A DNA stretch of 64,000 nucleotides from Escherichia coli (GTDB taxonomy: Bacteria; Pseudomonadota; Gammaproteobacteria; Enterobacterales; Enterobacteriaceae): the NCBI RefSeq assembly GCF_002854065.1, contig NZ_CP024147.1; one strand, 5' to 3'. Positions 45,932 to 48,893 of the stretch are shown piece by piece. Positions within the stretch are counted from its first letter, which is position 1, and every line of letters starts with the position of its first letter. The position numbers were made by a program, and so were the translations under genes. Below the pieces are notes generated by a model. That model saw only the letters and a list, made by a program, of their open reading frames with translations. It searched no databases and was not told the DNA's origin.

Positions 45932-47202
45932 TAATGTTTATTACAAGTTGTCTACATGTTAATTATAATATTATACAGCGTTTTTTTTGATGTGATATTC
46001 TGGAACCATTAATTTGTAATTGGGTTGCTGTCGCCTATTTTATACATACTATAATTGATGGTTTTTTATGTGATTTAGTTAATAACCTTCTGGGTTTATT
46101 TTAAGGGTTAATTGTTACATTGAAATGGCTAGTTATTCCCCGGGGCGATTTTCACCTCGGGGAAATTTTAGTTGGCGTTCTTAAAATGTGTACTTAAGAC
46201 CAGCAGTAGTGATGAAGTTATAGTTTTCTATACCTGCTCCATTTTTGCTGTAGTCTGAAGTGTTATTATTGTGATCATAAAGTGAAGTATTACCTTTTTT
46301 ATTCGTAACCCGATTCCATGCGCCTTCAACATAAACTTTTGCGTTAGGTGTGACGTAATAACCTGCATTGACTGCAACAGAATAGTAATTTTGGTCTTTG
46401 ACCTTACTGCGATAAGTGATTCTTTTTCCCGGGTCATAGTGTTCATCGTTATCAGATGATTCCACCCAGCCGCTGTATTTAAATGTGCCACCGAGTTCAA
46501 AATCTTCATAACGATAACTTCCAGTCAAGCCAATGTAGGGCATTTTAAAACGTTGTTTGTAGCCGATTGCTCTTTCTCCATTCGGGAAGGAGCCGATATC
46601 ATCTCTGAATCCCTCCTCAGAACTGTAGATATAGGAACCACCTCTGGCTGTAAAGCTATAACGGCTTTCCTGATATCCGGCCATGAGTCCCAGGCGGTAA
46701 TTGGGTTCGTTGAGGAGCCAGCCTTTGATATTCAGATCAAATTCGTTGGCATAATTGAGTTGTGTATCAGGGTGTCTACTTTCATCCGTCCAGGTTCCGG
46801 GGTTACTGGAATCCATCCACTCCTGATCGACCATATTGCCACCTCGGCTGCCGAGAGTTGTCCAGCCAGCAGCCCCGATAGATATCTGGGGCATCAAATC
46901 CCAATTAATTGCACCTTTAATAATTGCAGCGTTATTGAATTTCCAGTCGAGTTGACTGACTTTTCGGCCTCCTTCTTCGGCTAGATAAACACGCTCTTTT
47001 GTTTTTCCGCTCAGAGTTCCAAGACTAATGTCCGCATTTATGTTGTCAGGAGTAAACGATAAAGTCTCGGTAGAAGCAAAAGAGCTGATCGCAATAGGGG
47101 TTGTCAGGACTTAGACTGGCCCCCTGAATCTCCAGACAACCAATATCACTTAAATAAGTGATAGTCTTAATACTAGTTTTTAGACTAGTCATTGGAGAAC
47201 AG

Positions 47203-47568
47203 ATGATTGATGTCTTAGGGCCGGAGAAACGCAGACGGCGTACCACACAGGAAAAGATCGCAATTGTTCAGCAGAGCTTTGAACCGGGGATGACGGTCTC
47301 CCTCGTTGCCCGGCAACATGGTGTAGCAGCCAGCCAGTTATTTCTCTGGCGTAAGCAATACCAGGAAGGAAGTCTTACTGCTGTCGCCGCCGGAGAACAG
47401 GTTGTTCCTGCCTCTGAACTTGCTGCCGCCATGAAGCAGATTAAAGAACTCCAGCGCCTGCTCGGCAAGAAAACGATGGAAAATGAACTCCTCAAAGAAG
47501 CCGTTGAATATGGACGGGCAAAAAAGTGGATAGCGCACGCGCCCTTATTGCCCGGGGATGGGGAGTAA
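47203..47568 (+). CDS. insC: IS2 OrfA (InsC)
   Basis: 121 aa from [26 protein letters not shown]; HTH. Confidence 0.85.
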
Positions 47569-48431
47569 GCTTAGTCAGCCGTTGTCTCCGGGTGTCGCGT
47601 GCGCAGTTGCACGTCATTCTCAGACGAACCGATGACTGGATGGATGGCCGCCGCAGTCGTCACACTGATGATACGGATGTGCTTCTCCGTATACACCATG
47701 TTATCGGAGAGCTGCCCACGTATGGTTATCGTCGGGTATGGGCGCTGCTTCGCAGACAGGCAGAACTTGATGGTATGCCTGCGATCAATGCCAAACGTGT
47801 TTACCGGATCATGCGCCAGAATGCGCTGTTGCTTGAGCGAAAACCTGCTGTACCGCCATCGAAACGGGCACATACAGGCAGAGTGGCCGTGAAAGAAAGC
47901 AATCAGCGATGGTGCTCTGACGGGTTCGAGTTCTGCTGTGATAACGGAGAGAGACTGCGTGTCACGTTCGCGCTGGACTGCTGTGATCGTGAGGCACTGC
48001 ACTGGGCGGTCACTACCGGCGGCTTCAACAGTGAAACAGTACAGGACGTCATGCTGGGAGCGGTGGAACGCCGCTTCGGCAACGATCTTCCGTCGTCTCC
48101 AGTGGAGTGGCTGACGGATAATGGTTCATGCTACCGGGCTAATGAAACACGCCAGTTCGCCCGGATGTTGGGACTTGAACCGAAGAACACGGCGGTGCGG
48201 AGTCCGGAGAGTAACGGAATAGCAGAGAGCTTCGTGAAAACGATAAAGCGTGACTACATCAGTATCATGCCCAAACCAGACGGGTTAACGGCAGCAAAGA
48301 ACCTTGCAGAGGCGTTCGAGCATTATAACGAATGGCATCCGCATAGTGCGCTGGGTTATCGCTCGCCACGGGAATATCTGCGGCAGCGGGCTTGTAATGG
48401 GTTAAGTGATAACAGATGTCTGGAAATATAG
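47526..48431 (+). CDS. insD: IS2 OrfB (InsD) DDE transposase
   Basis: 301-aa ORF in -1 frame; A6G slippery motif at 47520-47526. Confidence 0.85.
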
Positions 48432-48893
48432 GGGCAAATCCAGGACTATTCCCAGAAGTTTCGCCCGCATAAAAGTTCTCCATTCAATCGTTTTAATGAT
48501 TGAATATGTATTTTTTATATCTAACTTAATGAGTTAATTACATATTGCTCCACTGTTTATATTTTGTTTAGTATTGAATGATTATCACAATGCGCTATCT
48601 GTTTTTGGTTTAATTATCTGTTATTGTTTCATATTGCGGTTTTACTGTGTGGTTTTTTTTATGCTTTTGTGGTGCTTTTATCTATTTAAGTGCCATGCCT
48701 TTAGAGGCATATAAGCGAAAATAGCATGAGGTTTATCCTCAATTACTATGTTTTTTAGTACAAAAAAGAGGGACAAAACTGAGACACATAAGGCCTCGCA
48801 ATGGCTTGCAAGGCTTTACATGTTTTGAGGTAGTGGGACGTGTGAGCGCAGAGATGGCGCGGTAAGTTGTTGACTTAAAATGTCGTTCTAGGA

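Follow-up and report, generated by a model that had tools for sequence, protein, structure and literature searches.

IS2 within the signal-peptide codons of ompT in an Escherichia coli lineage with an Asp85Glu OmpT

Can an Escherichia coli strain still make OmpT from a chromosomal ompT gene whose signal-peptide codons are interrupted by an insertion sequence (IS), and was that gene sound when it was hit? We study both questions for a window of 64,000 nucleotides (nt), i.e., the whole analysed stretch of contig NZ_CP024147.1 (assembly GCF_002854065.1), in which a complete IS2 splits ompT. Coordinates refer to this window unless another record is named. The window had been interpreted before from its letters and open reading frames (ORFs) only; we call this the sequence-only reading and relate our results to its claims. 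We consider it highly probable that the locus is an inherited IS2 knock-out of ompT, i.e., a gene in progressive decay. The mechanism is not new, since it is an ordinary IS knock-out by a known element; only the substitution of a catalytic residue and the nesting of the lesions are unusual, and mildly so.

Insertion point, empty site and shared junctions

The IS2 covers positions 47112..48442 of the plus strand (1,331 base pairs, bp), such that its transposase genes run antiparallel to ompT on the minus strand. It is flanked by two copies of the target-site duplication GGACT. One adjoins the left inverted repeat (IRL) at 47107..47111, which corresponds to nt 24-28 of the ompT coding sequence (CDS), and the other adjoins the right inverted repeat (IRR) at 48443..48447. 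The 5' stub of ompT (48443..48470, minus strand) comprises the ATG at 48470-48468 and CDS nt 1-28. It translates as MRAKLLGIV and then meets the right end of IS2 (TGGATTTGCCCC...), where codon 10 (CTG) is remade from a C and the terminal TG of the element. The body of the gene (46181..47111, minus strand) holds CDS nt 24-954, with the stop codon at its end, and is detached from promoter and start codon. Using tblastn, OmpT residues 9-317 are found at 47110-46184 with 100% identity.

Most of this had been recognised in the sequence-only reading. Its complete IS2 with InsC/InsD and an A6G motif agrees with the comparison to K-12 IS2A and with NCBIfam scores above the cut-offs (see below). Reconstruction and tblastn both support its placement of the resumed ompT frame at 47111 and of the C-terminus at 46181. 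The split after CDS nt 28 likewise bears out its statement that promoter, start codon and first nine codons are cut off from the remaining gene. At the right-hand side, three of its positions are one base too high. That is, the element starts at 47112 as claimed but ends at 48442 instead of 48443, and the ATG lies at 48470 instead of 48471. The 5-bp duplication itself stands, with its first copy at 47107-47111 as given; the second copy is located at 48443-48447, since positions 48444-48448 read GACTA.

When the IS and one GGACT are excised in silico, an uninterrupted OmpT of 317 amino acids (aa) results. It is a full-length omptin sequence: the NCBIfam model NF008222 is matched over positions 1-317 of 317 with 704.5 bits (cut-off 537), and the protein aligns to PDB entry 1I78 with E = 1.7e-201. 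The empty site also exists in nature. E. coli strain 100416 (NZ_CM128593.1) is the closest complete genome, and its flanks match the window at 100.0% and 99.9% identity. Its ompT is intact and carries a single GGACT (record positions 3614935-3614939). The 60-nt flanks from both sides of the insertion overlap in 100416 by exactly this GGACT; the insertion pattern is therefore not due to chance. Over 1,664 nt, the reconstructed allele differs from that of 100416 by 1 base, and both OmpT proteins are identical.

Further copies of the allele are found in public sequence, mostly as short contigs. Queries of 120 nt recovered neither junction uninterrupted from 5,426 complete RefSeq E. coli genomes, and the three left-junction matches among complete genomes consist of two separate pieces that are 480-500 bp apart. 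Exact 40-mers of the junctions are likewise absent from the GTDB representative genomes and the JGI metagenomes. Elsewhere the ompT::IS2 allele was located only via exact look-up of two proteins, namely a 237-aa remnant ORF of the ompT body (starting with ATG 46894) and EnvY, which is encoded upstream of ompT. The 237-aa ORF is present in 41 blocks of a large assembly collection, always on contigs of 2-5 kb; its 238-aa version with TTG start has no record in the exact-sequence look-up. Among the matches listed, 5/6 contigs begin 28-53 nt inside the IRL and show the identical joint, i.e., GGGGGCCAGTCTA directly followed by AGTCCTGACAACC. These are L006 (ENA ERZ28598384), L008 (ENA ERZ28627540), L009 (Logan SRR32138056), L010 (Logan ERR10101526) and L011 (Logan ERR9955141). 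The exact EnvY is found on five contigs with an empty site (L012-L016), on two that end at the junction itself (L020, L021), and on three in which envY is followed by the ompT promoter, nine codons and then the IRR with an identical right junction, namely L017 (GCA_025830375.1), L018 (GCA_005041505.1) and L019 (GCA_958432505.1). Because identical junctions are present on other public contigs, the insertion is inherited in a sub-lineage and no assembly artefact. No description of the ompT::IS2 allele was found in the literature searched; the allele is in public assemblies.

Predicted consequence for OmpT

IS2 interrupts the gene after CDS nt 28, i.e., within the 20-residue signal peptide, and leaves no unbroken frame that is equipped with promoter, ATG and signal peptide, since the two parts are separated by 1,331 bp. 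The stub keeps the promoter region, the Shine-Dalgarno sequence and the ATG, and its frame runs into IS2 up to a stop at 48404-48402. Transcription from the original promoter would thus only yield a 22-aa peptide that ends in IS2. On the side of the body, the terminal TA of IS2 and the first duplicated base form an in-frame TAA (47111..47113, minus strand), which closes the ompT frame directly at the joint. The codons of the body read TAA, GTC, CTG, and the first later ATG, GTG or TTG codons are TTG at 46897 and ATG at 46894. These are codons 80 and 81, i.e., 72 codons downstream and beyond the signal peptide. Accordingly, the frame of the remaining 308 codons would be shut, no promoter would point at them, and codon 80 would be the earliest usable start. 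Any product of the body would be without the signal peptide, would start only after 59 or 60 residues of the mature protein, and could not be exported to the outer membrane. Since promoter, ATG and nine codons are detached, a TAA closes the joint and the next start is remote and without signal peptide, we predict the locus to be OmpT-null. That this locus no longer yields OmpT is a strong inference, and the earlier prediction of an OmpT-negative strain is sound as far as this locus is concerned. An in-frame fusion of an IS2-borne ORF to ompT was considered and rejected, because the 66-aa ORF that spans the joint (47246-47046) is out of frame and the ompT frame has the TAA.

The sequence-only reading had also proposed that outward promoter activity of IS2 could affect the remnant, for which the orientation of the element is decisive. 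The IRL, holder of the inward-facing promoter PIRL, abuts the ompT body, and the IRR adjoins the 28-nt stub. An outward -35 element in the IRR is known to yield IS2 fusion promoters at ampC, acrEF and neoR (PMC9330008); the junction promoter Pjunc of IS2 is described in PMC3299598. The window shares the same element and thereby the same IRR end. In the known cases the IRR faces the activated gene, whereas here it faces the stub and, in antisense, the 3' end of envY. The outward candidate on the plus strand consists of TGGAAA (48421-48426), a 17-nt spacer and GACTAT (48444-48449), with matches at 4/6 and 3/6 positions, respectively. It would be a weak candidate for a fusion promoter, and IRR-driven activation is not to be expected here because its -10 GACTAT matches only 3/6 positions. 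If active, it would read antisense via the ompT stub and promoter toward the envY 3' end. In the other direction, a consensus scan found no promoter-like site on the minus strand that leaves the IRL toward the ompT body. Since IS2 and ompT run in opposite directions and the IRR -35 points away from the body, an effect of outward promoters on the latter is unlikely, and the respective suggestion is not supported.

The promoter region on the stub's side carries a change of its own. The likely core promoter of ompT (48510..48537, minus strand) combines a -35 TTAACT (48537-48532), a 16-nt spacer and a -10 AAAAAT (48515-48510). No mapped ompT transcription start was found in the literature, and we infer this assignment from the motifs. 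Upstream of the K-12 ompT, a single promoter-like site is called, which is the counterpart of this one (TTGACT-16 nt-AAAAAT); the window's version falls below the threshold. The difference is a G-to-A on the ompT strand at base 48535, 65 nt upstream of the ATG, which turns TTGACT into TTAACT. Only the window has this change: it is the sole mismatch to L017 and the only mismatch common to the comparisons with L017-L019, the empty-site contigs L012-L016 carry G at this position, and the respective 57-mer of the window occurs in 0/3,058 complete genomes. Either neutral drift of an already dead gene or an error in sequencing could account for it. Located 16 nt upstream of the promoter is an intact candidate for a PhoP-box-like repeat in reverse orientation, i.e., TAAACA-AAATA-TAAACA at 48554..48570 (minus strand). 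Induction of ompT depends on a PhoP site on the reverse strand (bioRxiv 10.1101/2020.02.28.965145).

Asp85Glu, order of lesions and competing explanations

The gene that was hit by IS2 differs from K-12 in a single residue. That is, codon 105 of the preprotein (46820..46822, minus strand), which is mature residue 85, reads GAG (Glu) instead of the codon for a catalytic Asp (D85E), and this is the sole difference to K-12 OmpT. A catalytic role is proposed for Asp83, Asp85, Asp210 and His212, which are described as invariant among omptins and whose mutation abolishes activity (PMC11410778). The aligned residue is Asp in the structures of OmpT (PDB 1I78), plasmid OmpT (7XW0) and Pla (2X56). Within the reconstructed OmpT, residues 83, 210 and 212 are as expected and only 85 deviates from the catalytic set. 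Among 3,063 complete genomes with this region, a 57-mer with the Glu codon is found exactly in one, which is strain 100416, and the exact full-length D85E protein is encoded on about 40 contigs of the large assembly collection. Because D85E is common to the empty-site relatives L012-L016 and the IS2-bearing allele, it seems to predate the IS2 insertion. This OmpT falls into a 90%-identity protein cluster whose representative, like most of its members, is an aspartate-semialdehyde dehydrogenase; this is apparently a clustering artefact unrelated to the locus.

The same allele was disrupted a second time. In a contig from a gut metagenome (L007, ENA ERZ943753), ompT resumes at CDS nt 227 directly next to a complete IS1 terminus (...GGAGTCATTACC) within positions 1-130, and the contig reaches 126 nt into the IS1. 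This joint lies in codon 76 of the D85E allele, equivalent to window position 46908, and is an independent disruption of the same ompT allele in a relative.

IS2 moves by a copy-out/paste-in mechanism via a minicircle. The most plausible course is that IS2 transposed in this way into an allele that already encoded Glu at the catalytic Asp85, inserted after CDS nt 28 and duplicated the 5-bp target AGTCC (ompT strand). The insertion would then have been fixed and inherited in an E. coli sub-lineage related to strain 100416. The latter belongs to phylogroup E (O52:H45), stems from a Gambian child and is reported without canonical virulence factors (PMC13063984). By parsimony, D85E would have come first, after which separate branches acquired IS2 (codon 10) and IS1 (codon 76). 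The -35 change and a further IS1 at 43853-44620 would have arisen last, in the window strain only.

Several observations weigh against the inherited knock-out as a full account of the strain. The loss of OmpT protein and activity is a prediction from the sequence, and another omptin gene (ompP, arlC) could exist outside the window, so that the phenotype of the whole cell is not callable from the window; within it, tblastn found no other omptin gene. The private base at 48535 could be a sequencing error, and shuffled sequence would give a match to the -35 consensus just as readily (1 found against 1.5 expected). The literature yielded no statement on whether Asp85Glu abolishes activity, and the mutants of PMC11410778 are not specified as Glu. 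The public contigs that bear the junctions may, in addition, derive from overlapping sets of isolates. A rival idea is that IS2 was merely placed into ompT by misassembly of a repeat, for which one could cite that IS2 is multi-copy in E. coli (median 4 places per genome) and that both junctions are missing from the complete RefSeq genomes, GTDB representatives and JGI metagenomes searched. We regard it as practically negligible, given the exact ends of the element, the 5-bp duplication, the precisely restored ORF and 8 independently assembled public contigs that cross the same junctions from unique ompT/envY DNA into IS2. Very improbable, if somewhat less so, is that the insertion fails to silence the gene, i.e., that an outward promoter of IS2 transcribes the ompT body and some active OmpT or fragment is made. 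The fusion promoters of IS2 at other genes speak for such a scenario, and antisense read-through out of the IS is compatible with the sequence. Against it stand the documented -35 in the IRR, which faces away from the body, the lack of a promoter-like site out of the IRL and the TAA at the joint with its first possible start past the signal peptide. Even if made, the product would stay cytoplasmic and carry Glu85.

A different question is whether the knock-out, once accepted, was favoured. OmpT could have been selected against as in Shigella, with D85E, IS2, IS1 and the -35 change as convergent inactivation; we think this unlikely. The number of lesions in one gene invites the idea, and a rationale for the loss of ompT is available for Shigella (PMC7373316). 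This rationale, based on the cleavage of IcsA, is not obviously applicable because the closest relative, 100416, is a phylogroup-E strain reported without canonical virulence factors. Moreover, neutral decay would be expected to add later lesions once the protein had been put out of action by D85E or IS2. IS elements are active in this lineage, where either side shows IS1 events of its own, and the roughly 40 contigs mentioned above keep an intact D85E ORF. Doubtful for us is, in the same vein, a stepwise and repeated loss of ompT in a phylogroup-E gut lineage without canonical virulence factors, i.e., D85E, then IS2 and IS1 independently, then the -35 change. If it were true, OmpT would be costly in this niche and the locus would exemplify natural selection against an omptin beyond Shigella. 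Neutral decay after the first disabling lesion explains the series of lesions; selection against OmpT is possible but unsupported. A link to the pathotypes enteroinvasive E. coli or Shigella was rejected, as it found no support. Loss of the Shigella type would belong to an invasive lineage with the virulence plasmid that encodes IcsA (VirG), and the window consists of chromosomal DNA only.

Given the inherited knock-out, chromosomal OmpT should be missing from the strain and from those relatives that share its junctions, which bears on the cleavage of cationic antimicrobial peptides, e.g., LL-37 and protamine. Schemes based on polymerase chain reaction or k-mers that score ompT as present would miscall the locus, since the body is whole but split and encodes Glu85. 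The two junction sequences are good markers of the sub-lineage. The nested lesions provide a small dated example of gene decay after a first disabling lesion, and they raise the question of how active an Asp85Glu OmpT is.

The IS2 copy, similar insertions and the neighbourhood of ompT

The window's IS2 shows all structural features that define the element. Of its 1,331 bases, 1,330 are identical to K-12 IS2A; the lone substitution at 47717 is silent in InsD. The IRL (42 bp, 47112..47153, plus strand) adjoins the ompT body and begins with TAGACTGGCCCCC, and the IRR (41 bp, 48402..48442, plus strand) adjoins the 5' stub and terminates with ...GGGGCAAATCCA. When the IRL is aligned with the reverse complement of the opposite end, both form imperfect inverted repeats of 42/41 bp, in agreement with the lengths reported for IS2 (PMC3299598). 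The IS2 repressor gene insC (orfA, 121 aa; 47203..47568, plus strand) encodes a protein identical to K-12 InsC1, which scores 275.8 bits for NCBIfam NF006928 (IS2 repressor TnpA, cut-off 229). The gene insD (orfB, 301 aa; 47526..48431, plus strand) provides the catalytic part of the OrfAB transposase. Its product shows 0 amino-acid differences to K-12 InsD1 and 727.6 bits for NF006918 (IS2 transposase TnpB, cut-off 597). The overlap of both genes contains the predicted window for programmed -1 frameshifting, i.e., the A6G motif AAAAAAG at 47520..47526 (plus strand), which occurs once in the IS and whose role in IS2 frameshifting is described (PMC3299598). With InsC and InsD identical to those of K-12 and the ends intact, the element is presumably competent for transposition (minicircle, active OrfAB). 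No further IS2 sequence was found in the window besides 47112-48442.

A well-known counterpart is IS2A of K-12 (IS3 family) within yaiX (NC_000913.3, 381260-382590). It shares length, 42/41-bp repeats, InsC/InsD and the A6G motif with the window's element, as well as a 5-bp duplication (ATTAC at yaiX) and the splitting of the hit gene in two. It differs in target gene and target sequence and by the silent base at 47717. Closer in location is the IS2 of strain ST130 (NZ_CP043478.1, L001) and other avian and yak isolates, which like the window's copy lies near the end of a DLP12-type prophage. In ST130, IS2 is intergenic between ompT and envY, and the annotation gives an intact ompT of 954 bp, in contrast to the insertion in the signal-peptide codons studied here. 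ST130 is a yak isolate with its IS2 at L001 3680-4908, and several avian isolates carry IS2 near ompT or envY; the ompT/envY neighbourhood seems to be struck repeatedly by IS2. In Shigella and in E. coli B/BL21, ompT was lost by deletions of the region. The window differs from them by a single IS insertion that is reversible in principle, by a gene that is otherwise complete, and by a lineage without known invasive virulence factors. BL21 is the respective example without chromosomal ompT (bioRxiv 10.1101/2020.02.28.965145).

Polar effects of the insertion on the neighbours of ompT are not expected. The gene is monocistronic here, appY (45182-45931, plus strand) converges on it, and terminator-like hairpins come after envY, its upstream neighbour (49746-48985, minus strand).

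Beyond ompT, the window contains an IS1 of 768 bp at 43853-44620 in a prophage tail-fibre-assembly pseudogene region, flanked by the 9-bp duplication GCTTATTCA (43844-43852 and 44621-44629). Since this IS1 is absent from 100416 and from five other ompT::IS2 contigs, it is younger than the IS2. The stretch 3260-13037 (about 9.8 kb) is replaced in 100416 by one IS1 between a truncated gcl and allD, apparently an IS1-associated deletion of DNA that the window retains.

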